Made by a program: the position numbers and the translations under genes. From Octopus vulgaris (lineage: Eukaryota): 64,000 nucleotides of DNA. Each line of letters starts with the position of its first letter. Within the stretch, counting starts at the first letter, position 1. Positions 1,760 to 63,028 of the stretch are shown here, one piece after another. Under the pieces are notes generated by a model, which had not been told where the DNA came from, did not search any database, and worked only from the letters and a program-made list of their open reading frames with translations. Location: assembly GCA_951406725.2 (NCBI GenBank), contig OX597824.1:67518001-67582000 (forward strand), written 5' to 3'.

Positions 1760-2687
1760 TAGCAACTCATAACGTAAAAGTAATATTGAAATTTCAAAAA
1801 AGTTATTATAATCAGAGTAGCATAGTAAATATTCAGAATAATATAACATCAAACGGAATAAAGAAACTCAAATAGAAGAGAACACCAACAATTTAAAAGT
1901 CGCTGAAAGAGAAACAACCAGAATTAACATAGTTTATAACGTAGGATCGAATAAAAATTCAGCTCAAAATAAAACAATGATAACGTTAACTAAAAGAGTA
2001 AATAATAACGAAAACCTTGATGGAAATGAATTTAATTTTAACATGAATGATAAAATTAAAACTAAATCTGAGAGAAATATAGAAAGATATCTTTGCAATT
2101 GTTCTAAATGGGAATCCTGTTATATGAAAAACTAGTGTAAGAGTAGAGATGTAATACATAGATGTAAAGTTACATCTGAGAGTAAAGATACTTTTACATC
2201 GGTGCGTCATCACTAGTTTTCAAGACGAGATTGGCACATCATTTGAGTCCATTTAGAGATAAAAATAAAAAATTCCTAACAAGTCTTAGTAAATTAATCT
2301 CGTCTATTAAAGACAGAAGAAAGATTATGCTCTCAGTTGGGAATTAATTTGCACTGGAAAACCATACAGAGCTGGAACAAAAAAATGTGACTTATGTTTA
2401 GAAGAATTATACCAAAGTTTTACATCAACGGGTAAAGTAATAAATTCTAGACAGGAACAAGCTTTCAGACGCTTGCACATGAATAAATTCACATTTTCCA
2501 AGTATGAATGAATAGCAAACGTTTAAACAACGGAATGTTTTGAAATAACGGTCTATAAGTGATTATCCAATCAAAACTTGAATTGAAGGTAGTTCGCATC
2601 TAACTTAACGAATAACTCTATATCATACAACGCAGAGTAGATAAACGAAAAACTTCAAACAGTTAAATTGAAGGATATTAAAGTAAA

Positions 2688-2771
2688 GATCCTGAAGAAA
2701 TTGTACCGGTATTGTATTAGGGTTACAATTGCAACGGTTACTGACCGGTGCAATTGAAACATGTGTAGGTA
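2688..2771 (+). ncRNA. Type I hammerhead ribozyme motif
   Basis: CTGAAGA 2692-2698; stem II aattgtaccggt/accggtgcaatt; GAAAC-ATGT-GTA (site 2765-2767); short stem I atc/ggt. Lies at the 3' end of a PLE remnant. Confidence 0.75.
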
Positions 2772-2844
2772 TATGTAAAGCTGTATATAAAGAATGAAAG
2801 GTAATGCTATGCCACTTTGTAATAATCCTTATTATTATTATTGT

Positions 2845-2894
<50 letters not shown>

Positions 2895-4293
2895 ATATGC
2901 TTAAAGGATGGTCATATATTTTGCAAGGAGATATGGACGATTATCATTCTGCAATATGACATAATTTCTTTTGTAAATAAAAAGTGCAATGTTTATATGG
3001 TTCATGTTAATTTTTGTTTTTGATATTTCGTGTTGTGGTGAGAAGCAGCTGTGTAGAATCAAATAATTTTATTCACCTAAAATATTACCTTCAGTATTCA
3101 AACCACAAGTATGAACATATGCATTTTTTAATGGGTAATGGTTGGGAATCAACTTTTAATCAATGTATACCAAAATGAGCATGACTCGGAAGTGGTACTA
3201 ATGATTTCACTGCACTTTAAAGCTTAATCTTCCCAGTACTTCCAAGATCCTTGTTGAGCAACGAAGATATTTACATCGTAGAGCTGTGGTTTTCAGAAAG
3301 ACACTCATATTTTATGTGATTACTTATGTGGCGCTTGTAAAGCTAGTCAGATCATAAAAGTGTCTACATGCAGCTAATGTTTTATCGCTTTTTTTTCTTT
3401 AGTTACCATTATGGTTTGGTCCGTGCGTTTATTAGAAGAACGTTTATCGAGAACGGTGAAGCTGAGAGAAACTTCTTTTTTTTTACGCATTCTGTACTTC
3501 TGCTTCGTACTACTAAGGTCAAAGAATTATTAAAAACATTACTTCACTTACGAAATATTATTATTCTTACTCTTTTACTTGTTTCAGTCAGTTGACTGCG
3601 GCCATGCTGGAATTTCTTATAAGAACTTTTATTGTAAAGTAAAAATTAACACTAATATTCATGTAAAGTTATTTTTCTACAGTTTACAATATGTACCACT
3701 GATCAGAACTGTAATTAAATCCAGGATTTTCTTTGAATCAATACAGAAAATAGATTCTTAGTCAAATATTTATTGAAAAGTATGTAAAATTGTGCTCATG
3801 TTCCTTGAGACAGTTAACAGCAATTAGATAATTCTGAGTTAGGTTAATTTCGAAATTATATTCTGCCGCATGTTGTTTTTAGATAATATATATTTAACGT
3901 AATCATGTCCGTAGGAGAGCCACTGTAATCTGCATAAGATAACGCAGCTGGAATTCTCTGTGTTATATATAGGTAAAAGAATTGTGCGCTCTTAAAAATA
4001 ATTGATTAATTTCGTTAAAAAGAAATCACAGTTTTATGTGAGGAATCATTTGAATGGATCGATTTGTCTACTCAATTAGGATTTATATTATGATGTCATA
4101 GGCATATTAACAAATATTATTTTCTCAGTTGCCTAAACCTGGTTCTGATATGGTATGAAATCATTATGTAAGCTATCATGTGGCGTTCTACAAATTCTGA
4201 CACCAACTGTCTTTTTACTCAAAAATAATATTTAACAAACACGGAAAAGAAAAATTAAAGAAAGAAAGGATTTAAAAATTCCAAAAAGAAAAA

Positions 4294-28684
<24,391 letters not shown>

Positions 28685-30039
28685 TTCAGAGATATTGAAC
28701 TGAGAGTGTATAGCATGTAAGAATTGTATTCAATATTGCATTTATAAATTACTGATACGTTGACAATACTTTGCATCAATGCTATAAGGTATTACAGGAT
28801 ATATCTATAGACTTTTGCAAACACCGAACAAAGTAGACAAATATAAATACTTTGTCTCTATATTTTTCTGTCCATGATTAGAAGAAATGCAGGAAAAAAA
28901 CAAACAATAACAAAAAGAAAAACAAAGCAAACCAAACAACCAAAATATTTCACATATAGTTCATCTTTTAATTCTGTTTAGTTAGAATGTAAAGTAAGAA
29001 TTATATGTGGGAACTCAGGCTTTTCCGCTTTTATTATAAATATGTTGCTCTTAAGGATTGTTTTAGCCAATTGCAATCTTGCAAGTCAATCCCACTTGAT
29101 ATTGCTGCATAATGGAGTTTAAAGAAATGTAATTAATTGATCACTTAATTTTCGTAGATTATTTTTGTTACCGATGATTTATTAATTGAGTTCTTAATTG
29201 CAGTAGATTTTTCATGTTTGTATATAACTTCTCTATATGGATATATCTCTGTCCATGATGATAACGGACAAGACGTTTATATATGTCTATCACACCTAAA
29301 ACTTAATGGATACACTCTATAGTATATAGCAGCATAATGAAAGTGATTAATGATGGCATCTGTAAATACATCGACGACTTATTGGTGGATGTCGATACCA
29401 TGTAGAACAACGGTTCAACTATTTTTCCCTGTTTGATTACTATTTTGCTCTGGTGGACACCCATAAACACAGAAACTTCTTTCTTATAAAATACAACTGT
29501 GGATCGCCAGAGTACTATTTTACTTGCATGGAACCCCTTCCTCCAATAGTATAGAGAACCCCAGTGGTCATATGGACGACAGTTGAGAACTACTGGTCCA
29601 GAATGTAGATGTATTAGAAAGTCAATAAATATCGTTACATCATTTCTACAAAGGGTTTGTTATTCTTGAATAATTCTCTATTACATTTGTCTTTCAAAGT
29701 ATACGTAATATATGTGACGTGAAAAGAGACACTCTTAGTATCTATTAAACCATAAACTATACTGACGGTAATGATAATGATAAATAACATGTATATATAT
29801 GTATATATATATATACATACATTCATACACATGCATATATGGGCACAGGACGTCACCATATGTGCAAATAACAAGAAATACGTAAAAGTTGAGAAAAAAA
29901 ATGGAAAATAGGACAAGTAAATACAGGGAAAGGACCCGTCATCAGTTGTTGGCTATCTGTCTACTCCTTATTTTGAGCATACAACGACAATATGTATCTT
30001 CAAAAACAGATGGTGCCATAAATTCTAAAATAAATATAT

Positions 30040-30093
<54 letters not shown>

Positions 30094-30115
30094 GTATATA
30101 TATATAGTATATATA

Positions 30116-30157
<42 letters not shown>

Positions 30158-31639
30158 CATACATATATGTATACATATATATATATACATATGCATATTC
30201 ATATATATATACATACATATAAATACTTATTCATATATACATAAACACATACATATATGTATACATACATACATACATATATGTGTGTATGTGTTATATG
30301 TGTATGTGTGAAGACATGGATATCACTGTATGTTGAGTTGTATATATGTATGCGTGTATATATATGTATGCATGTTTGTATATGTCTTTACGTCGGTATG
30401 TGTAGCGAATAGACGTGTAACTACTGGTAAAGTGAGGTTCTCACGAGGGAGATACCATTAAAGAACATTGAAGAATAACATCGAAAAGGAAGGAATATTA
30501 TTTACATGTTTATTTGTCTGGTAAGTGGTTAGTATATAAAACAGCAGTAATTGTACATAGTTTACGTGACAACGGGTTCGCTCGGTAGTGTGGAAGTTGC
30601 GTTCTGCTGATAGAGAGAGAAGATGAGCAGGGATTGCATGCCGCTGACAGAGAGGGTAAAAATTTGACCGAAAGGTGCTCTTCTCTTGTTGACGGAAAGT
30701 TGAAGAGATCAGAAAAACAGAGTTCTCCATTATATAGCAGACATCCAGGAAGTACGTCGTATCTGAAAGAAAGGACTGATCTCTTAGTGACACGAAGAAA
30801 GTCGTAGGTCAAGTGTTTGCTAAAGTTTTGAGAATTGCTTGACATGCAATTAGTGAGTGGTTTCAGTTTCGAAATACAAGCAGGGCCAAGTGAGGTCCTT
30901 ACATATGTATTTATGCGAATATATCTTTGAATGTGTGTATACGACAACAATAAACATCGATATTGTTTGCAGCAATGGTAAGAACAACCTGAATTATACA
31001 ACGAAAGGACATCAGGAGCTTAAGGGAAACACACACACGCACACACACTCACTCACTCACTCACTGATATACTCATTGACACACAATCCTAACCCTAACT
31101 CTAACACCATATCGGAAGTTGTGTGGTACTAGCAGCAGCAGCATCGTCACCACGACAACCACAGATTAACCAACGCGGACCCTGTAGCCCTGATGGTGAA
31201 TAATTATTTGCTCTCAATATATTGGGCTTCTAGACACTTGTCTAAGCCATGTTTTCTTTCCTTTTCCTTCTTCCTTCTGTTTATATTATGTGCTCTTGTT
31301 TTTCACTCTGATGAAGATCCGTTGCCTTAATTCGAATGCCCTATGAAGATGAAGAATTTTATTCTCGCATATATGTATAGACTGCATTTTGGCAATTTGA
31401 TCAGTAACGGTTGTAAGATATGTTATGTCACCTATTTTGTTATGTCTTGCTTTGTATTAAAAAATAAAGGTATAAATGTGGTCCAACCGATGTGTTTGTT
31501 AATCTGTGGTTTTCTCCATTTTCTAATTATTTGCATTGGTTCCTGATAAACTCTTGTTTATCCTGTTGTTATCTGTACTCTACGTGTATGGTGTGCCTGC
31601 ACACCATTGCCCGGGGATAATACAGGTAACGGACACATA

Positions 31640-31805
31640 TATACGACGGACTTCTTTCAGTTTCCGTCTACCAAATCCAATCAAAAGGCTTTGAGCGGCT
31701 CCGAAGGTATAGCAGAAGACACTTGCCCAAGGTGCCATGCAGTGGGACTGAACTCAGGACCATGTGGTAGGTAATCAAGCTACTTACCACACAGCCACTC
31801 CTGCG
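31640..31805 (-). mobile_element. tRNA-derived SINE family 3 (5' part)
   Basis: gcaggagtggctgtgtggtaagtagcttg..gagttcagtcccactgc..ccttgggcaagtgtcttct; full-length copy at 47221-47615. Confidence 0.8.
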
Positions 31806-31807
31806 AC

Positions 31808-31894
<87 letters not shown>

Positions 31895-31903
31895 GTACGT
31901 ATT

Positions 31904-32260
31904 AAATAAAATCAAAAACAGAACGCAAAGGATGTCGCGGTACACGTGTTTCAAGCTTTATAAACAACCTATTCTTACATCAGTGTATAATAGACATAAA
32001 GGATGGTTTAAAGCTCTATTCAGCCGCATGCAATTGTTATTCAAAAGAGTTACATAACACTATGAAAAATCCCAAAGGTACATTTACTTTCGGATTTTTC
32101 ATAGTGTTATGTAACTTTTTGGAATAACAATTGCATGCGGCTGAATAGAGCTTTAAACCATCCTTTATGTCTATTATACACTGATGTAAGAATAGGCTGT
32201 TTATAAAGCTTGAAACACATGTACCGCGACATCCTTTGTGTTCTGTTTTTGATTTCATTT
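31904..32260. repeat. Near-perfect ~175-bp-arm palindrome with a hammerhead-like motif in each arm
   Basis: Arms mirror about ~32082. Motif tgcgg-CTGAATA-gagcttta...taaagctt-GAAAC-ACAT/ACGT-GTA-ccgcg at 32136-32228. Confidence 0.9.
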
Positions 32261-32706
32261 GATACATATACCCTCTCACCTCTGCTACTAGCTGGCGTAT
32301 ATAGGTGCTTACACTCATCAAGTAGTCACCCTAAATTTACAGTATATATATATATATATATATACAGTTTATGTGATTAACCTGGATTTCAAGTCCGTAA
32401 AGCGAATCGTCAGATTTGAAACCTGTTGACTTTTGGCTTCTTTAGCAAGTTACCTCTCTAGAAAATGTAGAAGGAAAAGACTTCGCTGAGGTCAACAACA
32501 GGAGACTGTCTCTCTCTGTCTTTGGCTGTCATTCATATATGACTCTGTTATCGAGCAGATCTCAAGCATGGTCCGAAGACATCCGTTCTAGAGTTAAAGA
32601 TGTTCCGCGTGCCGGTGAAGTCCTTTTGTATTCTTGCCCATTCAGCTATGCCCAGTATATAACGCTTTGTCCCGTACATGTAGGGGCCTGGATTGTCTAG
32701 GATTCT

Positions 32707-32745
<39 letters not shown>

Positions 32746-32875
32746 AAAATAGTAAAGAGTGAAAAAACGACAGAAGGCTTAAATGTTAAAAAATATATAT
32801 ATTTGCGTCAAAATGTCTGGAGAATATTGGAAAAATTTTTTTCCTCCTTAAAATGACATAATTTTATAATTTTTA

Positions 32876-32914
32876 AAGAAATACCGGTTTCGCAGTTAGC
32901 TCTTCAAATTTCTT
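32876..32914 (-). ncRNA. Minimal type I hammerhead-like motif in the PLE 3' end (variant core)
   Basis: aagaaa-t-TTGAAGA-gc taact gc-GAAA-CCGG-TA-tttctt. Stem I aagaaa/tttctt, palindromic ACCGGT stem III, U in place of C3. Confidence 0.6.
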
Positions 32915-33041
32915 GTGACTTAATGTTTATTTTTAATAACGTAATCCTTGTATTTTTGCTACGGAGAGTTCTAAATAAGGGAAAGTAGTGAGTGATTTCT
33001 TCCGGTGTAAGGGAGATAATCATTAAAAATTTTTTTTTCCT

Positions 33042-34568
33042 TTAGTGTGAATTTCTCTGTATTATTGAGTTCGGATAGTTGAGTCTGGGTTTGTACTTTT
33101 CAATGAAGAATGTTTCCTTATTTAGTCTAATTTGTGATGATGATCCGAAAGCACATTGGTAAAATGGAAAGATTAAAAATTGTGGTTGTAGTTGCTTTGC
33201 GCATTTCTCAATGTGCTCACTAAAAGGTATCATTCTATATTCTGGGAATGCAATCTGTTGTCGATGCAGTGTGCATCTACGTCTGAGTGGTAGTCCCGTG
33301 GACCCCACGTAGTCTTGGTGGCAGCCCGAGCATTTAATGACATAAATTATGTTTTCAGAGGCACAAGTAAAGTTAGATTTGATCTTGAATTTCTGTCCCT
33401 CTTTAAAGAAGAATTCGGATCCTTCCAATAGGTTAGGACATGTTGCACAGTTCGATCTACCACATTTTTTTACTTTTGCATCCGTAATTTTAGAAGACAA
33501 TTTTGCCTTTGTGAGAATCTTTTTAAGTGATTTAGGCTGTTTGTAGCTTTTAATGATTTGGTGTATGTTTAGAATTTCCTTTAATTTGGTTTTTTTTTGA
33601 AGTATTGGTAAATTCTGGGTGATGATGGTGAAAGCTTCTTTGTTTCTGGGGTTGTATGTAGATATGTAAGGTAGTATTTTCGGGGAAGGTGTGTTGTTGT
33701 GTTGAACTTTTCTTAAAGTTTCTATGTTGATTTCTGTTGCACGTCTGATCCCATCCTCTATGAGTTGAGTTGGGTAATGTCTGTCAATTAAGGTGTTTTT
33801 GAGTTCTTGCAGTCTGAAGTTCCTGGTATTTTGTTCTGACACTATTGTGCATATCCTTCTTGCAAGGTTGAAGGGGATGTTTGTTTTAGTGTGTCTTGGG
33901 TGGCATGAACTAAAAAGAAGGTATTGTTTGGCGTCTGTGGCTTTGTAGAAAATGTCTGTTTCTATTTTAAGGTTAATTTTTTTAATTAGTATATCCAAGA
34001 ACGGGAGTTCCTTTTGGTTGTATTCCATTGTGAACTGTATATTTGGGTTTATGCTGTTTAATAGGTTTTTAAATTTTAAGAGTTTATCTGTGTTTTCATT
34101 CCAGAGAATAAAACAATCGTCCAAGAATCGTTTCCAGTTCTCTTTTATGTATTGAGAGAGGGGGTTTCCAAAGATTGATAAGGATTCCTGGTAAATGGTT
34201 ATTTCCATGTATCCCATTGTTAAGTTCGCAATGACTGGTGCTGCCCTTGTACCCATAGCAATTCCGGATTTTTGACGGTAAAATGTATTGTCAAACATGA
34301 AGTGGTTATTGTGTAGGATGAATTCAATTGATTTAGTAATGAATTCTTTACTGATCCTTTTTGGTATTTCTTCCGGAAATTGGTCTAACCAGAACTGAAT
34401 TGCTTCCAGTCCATAATTATGAGGTATACTGGTATACAAGTTGACTACATCAAATGAAACCAGGATTGTTTCTTCCTTGGCTTTTTTTGAGAGGTGGTTT
34501 AACATATCTAAGTCATCTCTGATATGGCTATCGATATGTTTAAGGAAGGGTTTCAGGAGGATGTCCAT
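33042..34568 (-). CDS. PLE reverse transcriptase (N-terminally truncated) + GIY-YIG endonuclease
   Basis: ORF-track 508 aa with the motifs above. The frame continues upstream as HRLSLL to the poly(A) junction at 34586. Confidence 0.85.
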   Translation of the reverse strand: MDILLKPFLKHIDSHIRDDLDMLNHLSKKAKEETILVSFDVVNLYTSIPHNYGLEAIQFWLDQFPEEIPKRISKEFITKSIEFILHNNHFMFDNTFYRQKSGIAMGTRAAPVIANLTMGYMEITIYQESLSIFGNPLSQYIKENWKRFLDDCFILWNENTDKLLKFKNLLNSINPNIQFTMEYNQKELPFLDILIKKINLKIETDIFYKATDAKQYLLFSSCHPRHTKTNIPFNLARRICTIVSEQNTRNFRLQELKNTLIDRHYPTQLIEDGIRRATEINIETLRKVQHNNTPSPKILPYISTYNPRNKEAFTIITQNLPILQKKTKLKEILNIHQIIKSYKQPKSLKKILTKAKLSSKITDAKVKKCGRSNCATCPNLLEGSEFFFKEGQKFKIKSNFTCASENIIYVIKCSGCHQDYVGSTGLPLRRRCTLHRQQIAFPEYRMIPFSEHIEKCAKQLQPQFLIFPFYQCAFGSSSQIRLNKETFFIEKYKPRLNYPNSIIQRNSH

Positions 34569-34586
34569 AAGCAGACTTAGTCTGTG

Positions 34587-35088
34587 TTTTTTTTTTTTTT
34601 TTTTTTTTTTTTTAAGGCTTAAAGAATATTTATTTTTGGCCTGAAATATATCTATTCATCCTCTTGGGAGCGAAGACGACCATGTGGATTTGTTACTTTT
34701 ATGTTCAACTGCAATGCACGATCAACTATGTCTTTTCTTTTCTTGCTGGAGACACCATGAGCAATTTCAGCTGCATATACTCGATTTTGCATCATCAATA
34801 TTTCCAATTCTCGAACATTGTGAACTAAAAACTTTCTAAATCCATCAGGCAGCATATGCTTGGTTTTTTTATTTGAACCATAACCAATATTTGGCATCAA
34901 GTATTGACCTTTAAACCGCCGTCGTACTCGATTATCAATTCCCTTAGGTTTACGCCAGTTTGACTTCAGCTTTTTATACCTATCAGACTGATGTCTGATA
35001 AACTTTTTGGTACGTTTCTTGATAATAGTTGGCTTATGGAGTGGGCGCACCATTTTTGTTCAATAAACCAGGCATAATTCCAAGAGAG
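34587..35088 (-). pseudogene. RPL32: Full processed RPL32 cDNA: putative 5'TOP start, UTRs and poly(A)
   Basis: CTCTCTT pyrimidine tract (35088-35082) starts 35 nt upstream of the ATG. Short 3'UTR with AATAAA 15 nt before the 27-nt A tract. Expression unknown. Confidence 0.85.
34652..35053 (-). CDS. RPL32: 60S ribosomal protein L32 (eL32), intact ORF in an intronless processed retrocopy
   Basis: 133 aa with eL32 signatures [64 protein letters not shown]. No introns or stops. AATAAA at 34629-34634, genomic A27 at 34587-34613. Confidence 0.95.
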
Positions 35089-35235
35089 TTAGAGCTTGCG
35101 AATCCAACCAACTAAGGGATAATATCTATCCAATATACTGCCAGTAGAATACTCAATTATTAATACACAAGTGTTTTTTCATTGCATGAATATAATAAAT
35201 GGGTGAGGGTAAAAAAGTTGTTTTACCCTTAATTT

Positions 35236-35675
35236 ATACGGCAATAAGAAAATGGAGGGGATCAAGAGGTGGTATTCATCAACTTTTAGACGTTATATTG
35301 TCTATTTATTTATTTTTTTATAAAAAAACTGTTATAACAAAATACAATCATTTATAACAGATTATGCTTTACATATATAAAAATACCAGTAATTATTAAA
35401 ATATATAACATAGAACATCATCATCATCATCGTTTAAAGTCCGCTTTCCATGCTAGCATGGGTTGGACGGTTTAACTGGGGTCTGGGAAGCCCGAAGGCT
35501 GCACCAGGCCAGTCAGATCTGGCAGTGTTTCTACAGCTGGATGCCCTTCCTAACGCCAACCACTCCGAGAGTGTAGTAGAAAGTAGAATAGTTTCTTACA
35601 TAAATAAACATAATATAATGCCTAAAAGTTGATGAATACCACCTCTTGATCCCCTCCATTTTCTTATAGCCGTAT
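35236..35675. repeat. Inverted repeat (~100-bp arms) with a nested repeat fragment
   Basis: ataagaaaatggaggggatcaagaggtggtattcatcaactttta versus its reverse complement at ~35620-35670. The interior (35416-35575) matches 43825-43985 (catcatcatc..ccatgctagcatgggttggacgg..ggatgcccttcc). Confidence 0.75.
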
Positions 35676-35699
35676 ATATATATGTGTATGTGTGTGTGT

Positions 35700-36200
35700 A
35701 ACATATGGTATAATTAAAAACAGGGCAAATTTTAGTAATTTCTCCGCAGACTGAAAAAACGATGAACAAACTTAATCGATTTTCGCACCTTATTGGGTTC
35801 ACATCAGATGTGTCTACATCATTCTGACAGTCTCCAGAGAAACAATCATCTAATCTGTTTATATACTCAACAAATGCATTAGTTACTCTATGAAAGATTC
35901 CCTAATTTGTATACTGAAAGTGTTTAACACTATAAATACCAGCGGCCTGTCAACGGGGATCTTAGTCCACACAGTATCACGGTGTGAAATAATATATATG
36001 TAACATATGACATAATTATAAACAGAGCAAAATTTAGTCATTTCTCCGCAGACTGAAAAAAAATTATGCACAACCTTAATCGATTTTCGAACCTTAGTGG
36101 GTTCTCATCAGAGGCGTCCACATCATTCTGACAGTCTTCAGAGAAACAAGTAGCCAAACTGTTTATATACTCAACAAATGCAGCAGTTACTCTATGAAGG
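35700..36200 (-). repeat. Two tandem copies (period ~304 bp) of a hammerhead-bearing unit
   Basis: 35700-35900 matches 36000-36200 (tttctccgcagactgaaaaaa..ttaatcgattttcg..catcattctgacagtct). Confidence 0.85.
36073..36115 (-). ncRNA. Type I hammerhead ribozyme motif, canonical core
   Basis: gcct-CTGATGA-gaacc cactaa ggttc-GAAA-ATCGAT-TA-aggt; palindromic AATCGATT. A degenerate tandem copy lies 304 nt away (~35769-35811). Confidence 0.8.
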
Positions 36201-36202
36201 AG

Positions 36203-36313
<111 letters not shown>

Positions 36314-37293
36314 AAGATGAACGGCTGTGTGTGTGTGTGGATTTATAGAAAGAAAGACAAGAGCGTCTACATAAAAACTAAAAGTTAATTCTTGAGTAAA
36401 ATCTTCCAAGGGAGACAATGGAAGTGATCCTGAGTCTCTAGGTGTTCCCCACCTAAGAGAGCTAGTGGCCCTTTTACAAATGTTGTACATTGCGCAGTCC
36501 CAACTAAAACAAAAAATTACCGCTCTAAGGTAGGTAACTAAATGGAAATTCTGGGAAAAACTAAAACCTGAAAATTATTCATGGGTTATTTTTTCATGCT
36601 TTACGATAGTTGATCTTCAATTCTCTACTTCATCATTCTATGTATAAGAAGCATGCTACTCACAGAGATAGATTGTTACTATGTATCCCTATTAGATATG
36701 TGTGTAGACTTTAATAGTATTATAATATTGCTTTTATTCTTTTTATATTTATATCTTCGAGCTACCAGCCTATTCATCTAAAGCTATGTGTATTTGGCCA
36801 AAACTCACCCGACAGTAAATCAAAGTTCCATAAATACTTAATATTCAAATTTATTTATTCATTCGAATTCTGAATGTTCAATAATTATATTCTTTGAATT
36901 AAAATCGCCGTTTTTTTTTCAACATTTATTAGCGAAGTCTCATATAAATTAATTTTTTGTTTTAATCTTAGAATTAAATGGTTTTTGATTTACTGTCAAG
37001 TAACTTTTGGCTAACCCTGTATATATATATATATATATATATAGTTTACTTTTTCGTTAAAGTATGATCAACCAAACAAGTATACCAACTGGTTAGAGAT
37101 AAATATTGTTTAATGTACACAGTACAGTACCTATATTTGTTTACTATATACGGTGCTAGGAAAAGTCTATAGATACACCGTGTAGTACATTATAGCATTG
37201 ATACAAAGTATTGTCAACGCATCAAGTAATTTATAAATGCAATATTGTATACATTTCTTACATGATATAAACTTTCAGTTCAATATCTTTGAA

Positions 37294-63028
<25,735 letters not shown>

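Follow-up and report, generated by a model that had tools for sequence, protein, structure and literature searches.

Template jumping has been described for the reverse transcriptases (RTs) of non-LTR elements. LINE chimeras, which include the U6/L1, U6/L2, U6/RTE, Alu/L1 and fungal MINE types (PMC4476161, PMC13174262 and PMC2104539), are presented in these sources as composites with a cellular RNA on the 5′ side and a 5′-truncated element on the 3′ side, in the same orientation and from one integration. Messenger RNAs are named among the partners in the background of PMC2104539, and PMC13174262 reports 17 mRNA/lncRNA-L1 chimeras, mostly first exons spliced to near-full-length L1. According to PMC4476161, processed pseudogenes are few where the LINEs of a genome are stringent, and copies of this kind arise there as chimeras. 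In the LTR-mediated retrocopies described in PMC5131818, a host mRNA likewise enters the genome when reverse transcription leaves the RNA of the element for the host message; the cases given there involve two switches, an LTR on both sides, a median microsimilarity of 6 bp and an example without poly(A). Host gene sequence has also been moved by the machinery of a Penelope-like element (PLE) in Adineta vaga, where introns are retained, pLTRs flank the gene and an 8-bp target-site duplication (TSD) is present; going by PMC3846280, the only host genes known to be moved by PLEs lay between the elements' terminal repeats and retained their introns. The abstract of PMC5131818 states as an open question which elements make retrocopies outside mammals, L1-type and LTR routes having been shown.

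In the 64,000-nt stretch of Octopus vulgaris DNA analysed here (contig OX597824.1, positions 67,518,001 to 67,582,000; hereafter the window), we examined a composite on the − strand that consists, in order, of an older repeat, TAT, an RPL32 copy, A27, a PLE and (TA)17. Its features are as follows.

35077..35418, − strand: left flank, the end of an older, unrelated high-copy repeat, whose family copies end ...CTCTCTTGGAAT and then (TA)n
35074..35076, − strand: TAT, remnant of the target TA tract, bridged by a DNA contig of run X14 (35039-35125) with 0 differences
35054..35074, − strand: copied RPL32 5′ UTR, 21 nt, with the final 7 nt of exon 1 (35074-35068) spliced to exon 2
34652..35053, − strand: RPL32 ORF, intact and intronless, 133 aa, with further introns removed at ~34964 and 34811/34810
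34614..34651, − strand: RPL32 3′ UTR, 38 nt, with AATAAA at 34634-34629, as read in the sequence
34587..34613, − strand: A27 tail, with 1 nt (up to 3 nt) of A microhomology with the PLE
32744..34586, − strand: 5′-truncated PLE, 1,843 nt, equal to positions 2147-3994 of the 3,994-nt full-length copy L052
33042..34586, − strand: open remainder of the RT-endonuclease ORF, with FLDD, a Cys linker and a GIY-YIG-type core
34127-34116, − strand: FLDD motif of the PLE ORF
from 33464, − strand: Cys linker CxxxxCxxC of the PLE ORF
33350-33303, − strand: GIY-YIG-type core of the PLE ORF
~32877..32912, − strand: minimal type I hammerhead-like motif with a variant core, a short helix II and a palindromic CCGG loop
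32709..32743, no strand assigned: (TA)17, right part of the target tract

The A27 tail meets the PLE at 34586 without a spacer, the cellular RNA being 5′, the truncated element 3′ and the orientation shared. A first-pass annotation of this DNA had read the intact RPL32 ORF, AATAAA, A27 and the adjoining PLE from the letters alone, and these parts were borne out by matches of the ORF (35053-34652) to PF01655 (Ribosomal_L32e; E 4e-52) and of the PLE to RVT_1 (E 3e-8). While the composite is built like the LINE chimeras, its element is a PLE, with a GIY-YIG endonuclease and a telomerase-related RT, and its partner is a near-complete spliced mRNA with poly(A). In contrast to the A. vaga transfers, it is intronless, carries poly(A), has the PLE on its 3′ side only and shows no pLTR on the RNA. 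A pLTR-flanked, intron-retaining transfer was accordingly rejected, as introns are removed and no pLTR lies upstream. Unlike the LTR-mediated retrocopies, it would need a single switch, onto the tail, and direct joining to the target DNA. The legend to Fig. 7 of PMC13174262 takes a shared orientation to indicate template switching or RNA joining but not twin priming, which we rejected on that ground. The composite most probably arose in one insertion event, in which the PLE RT switched from its own RNA to the poly(A) tail of an RPL32 mRNA. In the mostly open literature searched, no published fusion of a spliced, polyadenylated mRNA with a truncated PLE was found, although supplements (e.g. PMC13174262 Table S5) could hold whole-mRNA cases.

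To establish the nature of the RPL32 copy, we compared it with contigs of sequencing runs. The encoded protein is one residue apart from, and 99% identical to, Octopus bimaculoides RPL32, and a foreign or parasite origin was rejected on this basis. Three introns are absent from the copy, which is spliced at 35068, ~34964 and 34811/34810. All three are represented in runs X1 and X14, whole-genome runs from two studies that we take to be DNA and one of which is possibly the assembly's own sample: 35068 is marked by a polypyrimidine-AG loose end, 34810 by a GT donor and 34964/5 by contig breaks. The parent contigs extend ~360 nt past the RPL32 3′ end into other genomic sequence, and by comparison with them the A27, which starts 15 nt past AATAAA, is non-templated. 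The same two runs hold exact exon-exon pieces of 58-59 nt, with 29-30 nt per side (below the 31-nt bridging threshold), and an 87-nt contig of X14 spans the flank/copy junction with 35 + 52 nt. An intron-bearing RPL32 parent gene therefore exists in two DNA runs, and the copy is a processed retrocopy present as DNA, with introns removed and poly(A), its status being settled by the presence of both the intron-bearing parent and the spliced-junction pieces in these runs. Searches of the assembly found no intron-bearing RPL32 parent, only the composite locus and an 81-nt, 90% fragment. This blank result suggested a retrogene that had replaced a lost parent, an idea rejected because the two DNA runs hold the introns.

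We then considered whether the copy could be a functional gene. A promoter is lacking, and among the RNA contigs listed none spans the junction with the flank; these contigs carry the parent 5′ end or stop short. The copy is therefore best regarded as a young processed pseudogene whose ORF is intact. With the parent in two DNA runs and no sign of expression of the copy, neither a functional retrogene nor a retrogene replacement is indicated.

The 5′ end of the composite required reinterpretation. The first-pass annotation had taken CTCTCTT (35088-35082) as a TOP-like mRNA start. A dispersed repeat, for which a first look gave 2,202 candidates, matches bases 35188-35074; its end motif was located in 12 of the 14 copies fetched, and in all 12 it continues directly into TA-rich sequence. 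The TOP assignment was rejected, since CTCTCTT is part of the terminus of this high-copy repeat, after which (TA)n normally follows. One RNA contig, of run X2, continues 18 nt beyond 35074 and starts CTTTCC, which is probably the true capped start of the RPL32 mRNA; the letters before it are presumably a template-switch oligo. Since this contig starts 18 nt further up, the copy has no real TOP motif and misses the first ~18 nt of the mRNA; it is nearly complete. The T at 35074 is common to the TA remnant and the mRNA, a microhomology of 1 nt. Because the left repeat is normally followed by (TA)n, and the PLE by (TA)17, both outer ends appear to lie in one TA tract, and the pre-insertion site was likely the repeat followed by (TA)n, with the whole composite inside a single tract. 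The TA tract is the usual target of this PLE family, and this placement favours one insertion. In agreement with the first-pass annotation, no unique TSD was seen around the composite, which lies in (TA)n, where a TSD cannot be read, and no PLE 5′ part was found anywhere in the 64-kb window, upstream of RPL32 or otherwise; a retrocopy bounded by a TSD within a PLE, looked for in the same window, was likewise not found.

We next characterized the PLE, which belongs to a large, young family. The full-length copy L052 has an ORF1 overlapping the RT-endonuclease ORF, partial tandems and an optional 49-nt tail. The PLE of the composite starts just past the RPIV motif of the RT (HRLSLL...) and ends at the exact family 3′ terminus. 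Its Cys linker, CGRSNCATC, meets the CX2-5CxxC definition given in PMC8557442, where such a linker marks Neptune and Nematis PLEs and is linked to microsatellite targeting. The GIY-YIG Pfam match is weak (E 0.004, below the Pfam cut-off), and the motif was read by eye. The element is an EN+ Penelope-like element and, judged by linker and motifs, would be of the Neptune/Nematis type. With the EN+ elements described in PMC8557442 it shares a C-terminal GIY-YIG with the Cys linker and CCHH-type residues, an ORF1 offset from the RT ORF, partial tandems, inverted 5′ copies, a short tail (49 nt in the octopus PLE against the 30-40 nt given there), a putative hammerhead-like motif and a bias to (TA)n.

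The first-pass annotation had reported a GIY-YIG and a hammerhead-like tail running into (TA)n. The (TA)17 was confirmed, the GIY-YIG match is weak, as above, and the hammerhead-like motif is minimal. The motif was compared by eye with PMC4209133 (further background in 10.64898/2026.07.22.740005), and cleavage is putative. It recurs with its variant core across the family (~100 pattern matches), and in an older subfamily its helix I pairs perfectly. As a monomer, the motif or PLE tail RNA folds no better than shuffles, and an Rfam scan of 28000-40000 gave no hammerhead match, only sub-threshold microsatellite/miRNA noise.

The first-pass annotation had called for the breakpoint to be placed against the PLE family, and this could be done: the truncated PLE begins at element position 2147, where the family sequence reads ...GTGAAACA|CACAGAC. 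The A microhomology with the tail is 1 nt, or 3 nt in the register of the relative L060, which has one CA fewer. This junction is seen in the assembly only, the read contigs having been compared without 34573-34624, and a misjoin at the poly(A), with a real retrocopy and a PLE that belongs elsewhere, might be imagined all the more as the blank searches for the parent show the assembly to be imperfect for RPL32. The assembly is, however, contiguous (227 contigs for 2.8 Gb), the 5′ junction is present in run X14, and a misjoin over a 1-3-nt overlap would hardly restore a TA-bounded unit; we regard such an artefact as very improbable.

The same junction bears on whether the parts were joined outside reverse transcription, within one insertion, by prior ligation of the mRNA to a PLE RNA fragment or by insertion of a free RPL32 cDNA as the 5′ junction was being repaired. 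In PMC13174262, RNA ligation is recognised as one way in which U6/L1 chimeras form. Neither ligation nor cDNA capture can be told from a template switch by sequence alone. RtcB needs a 3′-phosphate or cyclic phosphate, however, and a normal poly(A) end has neither; in addition, A microhomology is kept at the junction, and no RNA contig joins the parts, though the junction region was outside the contig comparison. We therefore give this route very little weight.

We then assessed the age of the two parts. The RPL32 copy shows 0 differences over 443 nt from an RNA contig of run X4, and 0-1 differences from the RNA contigs in general. The PLE falls in the youngest subfamily; it is separated from its nearest copy by 17 differences over 1,841 nt, and from the majority of the ten copies in its group by 13. 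By a rough calibration from PMC13282606 (JC 0.09 = 25 My), these values point to both parts being young, under about 2 My, as the first-pass annotation had supposed in calling the event very recent. The PLE part has 13 private differences against 0 in the RPL32 part (~3 expected at an equal rate), several of them clustered at A/T runs; the contrast is weak. It would suit a sequence of two insertions in which the PLE came first and an RPL32 cDNA was later primed within it and deleted back to the TA tract. Against this order, the deleted stretch would need to reach precisely to the TA remnant, priming would have had no more than 1-3 A available at the breakpoint, and the window retains no PLE 5′ part; we judge it a very unlikely history.

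How often could the parts meet by chance? The family has 907 exact 3′ ends (211 + 696), and the genome has ~1.2 million TA tracts of at least 8 units, a figure extrapolated from 28 in the window. The chance of a young PLE at a given TA tract is thus <1 in 1,000, before the same orientation and a joint inside the tail are required, and from these numbers a chance meeting is unlikely.

To see how other members of the family are joined to their surroundings, we surveyed 140 other loci, a non-random sample of 20 long best matches and the first-listed places on C1-C7, in which two loci may be one duplicated insertion. Inverted, head-to-head halves were found in 95 of the 140 insertions. The remaining 45 copies were non-inverted; TA was present at the 5′ junction in 30 of them and absent from 15, one of which was incomplete at a sequence edge, and the 14 examined join flanking DNA with little or no TA. 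Extra internal pieces were flagged in 13/140 insertions (2 of these edge artefacts), and two copies, L070 and L114, have T runs of 24-30 nt at joints. The frequent rearrangement and the T-run joints suggest that the PLE RT often restarts or switches while copying its own RNA and is able to accept A-rich templates.

By the 14 copies with little TA, the family can delete target DNA at its 5′ side, so that TA between an older retrocopy and a PLE inserted behind it could be lost. They thereby lend something to a history in which a LINE, or a PLE protein acting in trans, first made the RPL32 retrocopy and a later PLE in the same tract joined its A-tail with loss of the TA. The TA tract already adjoins the older repeat, and RTE, CR1, L1-Tx1 and Dong-R4 LINEs are reported in PMC13282606 to have been recently active in Octopus vulgaris. 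Such a history nevertheless requires a young PLE in the same tract, with the low chance given above, in the same orientation and with its joint inside the tail, and the sole older full retrocopy that we saw (RPLP1, L130) lies outside a TA tract. We consider it improbable.

The component parts and the order in which they stand, the loss of the introns, the TA surroundings and the young age are observed directly; from them we infer a single event with the PLE RT as the switching agent. One event is favoured because there is one TA tract, an exact family 3′ terminus, two young parts and one orientation, and it gains from the scarcity of young retrocopies and the unlikelihood of a chance meeting. 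These same features, in support of the first-pass annotation, speak for a template switch from TA-primed PLE RNA to the poly(A) of an mRNA. The microhomology of 1-3 nt, the lack of a readable TSD or empty site and the 0/140 second cases count against it. In the single event, the GIY-YIG endonuclease would have nicked the (TA)n tract behind the older repeat, and the RT would have primed at the nick on the normal 3′ end of the PLE RNA and copied 1,843 nt. At element position ~2147 it would have left the PLE RNA, the cDNA end (1-3 T) pairing with the RPL32 poly(A). It would then have copied A27, the 3′ UTR and the ORF, continued through most of the 5′ UTR and halted 18 nt short of the mRNA start, after which the cDNA end may have joined the left TA remnant via one shared base.

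Further mRNA-poly(A)-PLE junctions, which the first-pass annotation had proposed to look for, did not emerge: none of the 140 other family copies has an mRNA with poly(A) upstream of the PLE, and searches of five other gene families (PF00428, PF01248, PF00160, PF01157 and PF03143) gave no young retrocopy. The latter searches yielded the one old RPLP1 retrocopy mentioned above, which has no PLE next to it, and four coding regions that are poor in introns and have no poly(A). A second copy of the whole composite was not found in the assembly, and multiplication of the composite as a new element was rejected. Given the absence of a second case from the 140 copies and the five gene families, the mRNA-poly(A)-PLE chimera is rare. 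The broader proposal of a PLE-driven route to retrogenes has this one case in its favour, against 0/140 other copies, no promoter and no sign of expression. That PLEs are a regular source of processed gene copies in the octopus, with the RT jumping onto poly(A) tails and copying whole mRNAs, seems doubtful to us; if it were true, a number of mRNA-poly(A)-PLE units should be present in TA tracts across the genome, and some would be retrogene seeds.

Read as a template switch, the locus extends the known mechanism of chimera formation to a new element class, the PLEs, and to a nearly whole mRNA. It suggests that the RT of a PLE is able to engage a mature mRNA through the poly(A) tail and reverse-transcribe an intact ORF, the passenger having neither a hammerhead nor a pLTR. 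As the PLE transposition cycle is described in PMC8557442 as still undefined, the locus gives a concrete prediction on the behaviour of the PLE RT.

The retrocopy is the sole full RPL32 in the assembly and will attract RPL32 annotation and RNA-seq reads. Short-read polishing of the assembly, if done, could erase differences between copy and parent, but the copy-specific pieces also match. In X14, the depths of copy-specific and parent-specific pieces overlap (9-18 vs 12-17), and zygosity is unreadable from contig depth. A 75-nt contig of X1 (depth 26) diverges from the window sequence at 34633; as a guess, its length would fit an allele of the copy with a 1-nt change running into the A-tail.

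Searches of the O. vulgaris assembly (G000) found no intron-bearing RPL32 gene; the sole full RPL32 in this assembly is the retrocopy at window positions 34652-35053. The protein in the public record P0001 is identical to that encoded by the retrocopy, which has probably been annotated as the RPL32 gene. In X1, a DNA run that contains the intron-bearing parent as well as spliced pieces, a 75-nt contig with a depth of 26 diverges from the window at 34633, one base into the AATAAA. It may come from a slightly altered allele of the copy or from a second one. A further RPL32 piece, an 81-nt stretch of the 3′ coding end with 90% identity, lies on another contig (L017:1501-1581; G000:C7:37623110-37623190), embedded in a common repeat and flanked on both sides by ATGAATGA. 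A contig matching it was present in a second DNA run, X14, and the piece is possibly an RNA-templated patch.

Other genes also have intron-poor or retrocopied forms in the assembly. An old, full-length RPLP1-like retrocopy (L130:1436-1850; G000:C8:54720414-54720686) carries a stop and a decayed A-tail, and no PLE adjoins it. Two diverged RPL21 copies with uninterrupted coding regions lie 11 kb apart (L222 and L223; G000:C1:33834223-33845710); these, together with an intron-poor cyclophilin and an EF-Tu-like gene (L202; L225), are probably old retrogenes.

The following features lie near the composite.

Window 35697-36207, minus strand: retrozyme-like dimer beside a TA tract, two ~87% identical copies ~304 bp apart
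Window 36114-36067, minus strand: type I hammerhead-like motif with a canonical core and a palindromic loop, in one dimer copy
Window 35810-35763, minus strand: degenerate type I hammerhead-like motif with a palindromic loop, in the other dimer copy
Window 35422-35577: second repeat, interrupting the repeat left of the insertion

This left-flank repeat has an inverted arm (window 35232-35312 and 35597-35679) and a TA-abutting end, features that resemble a PLE-mobilised element, and on C24 (G000:C24:35548869-35553342) it is arranged as a ~164-bp tandem array. Between TA/CA tracts at window 31896-32268 lies a near-perfect (95%) inverted repeat of 182 nt with a 9-nt spacer, similar copies of which occur elsewhere.

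Several PLE copies showed unusual joints. At L070:2660-3323, ~T30 links an inverted PLE piece to (TA)n at a point where the element itself has only A5, and at L114:536-551, T24 separates the halves of a copy; such runs could stem from a short transcript that had been polyadenylated, or from telomerase-like slippage of a reiterative kind. Four copies (L092, L085, L072 and L170) are truncated at element positions 3852-3855, where the hammerhead is predicted to cut (after position 3853). These end points could be traces of in vivo cleavage, or they could lie where the alignment passes from one subfamily to another. At L055:1-2019, a PLE of another family, ~67% diverged, directly abuts the 5′ junction of a window-family copy in the same orientation, as would result from a PLE-PLE switch or from insertion into the TA tail of the other-family PLE.

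Finally, 37-51% of the words of the octopus stretch were present in insect and termite-gut metatranscriptome runs (X16, X17, X19 and X20), possibly through cross-contamination.
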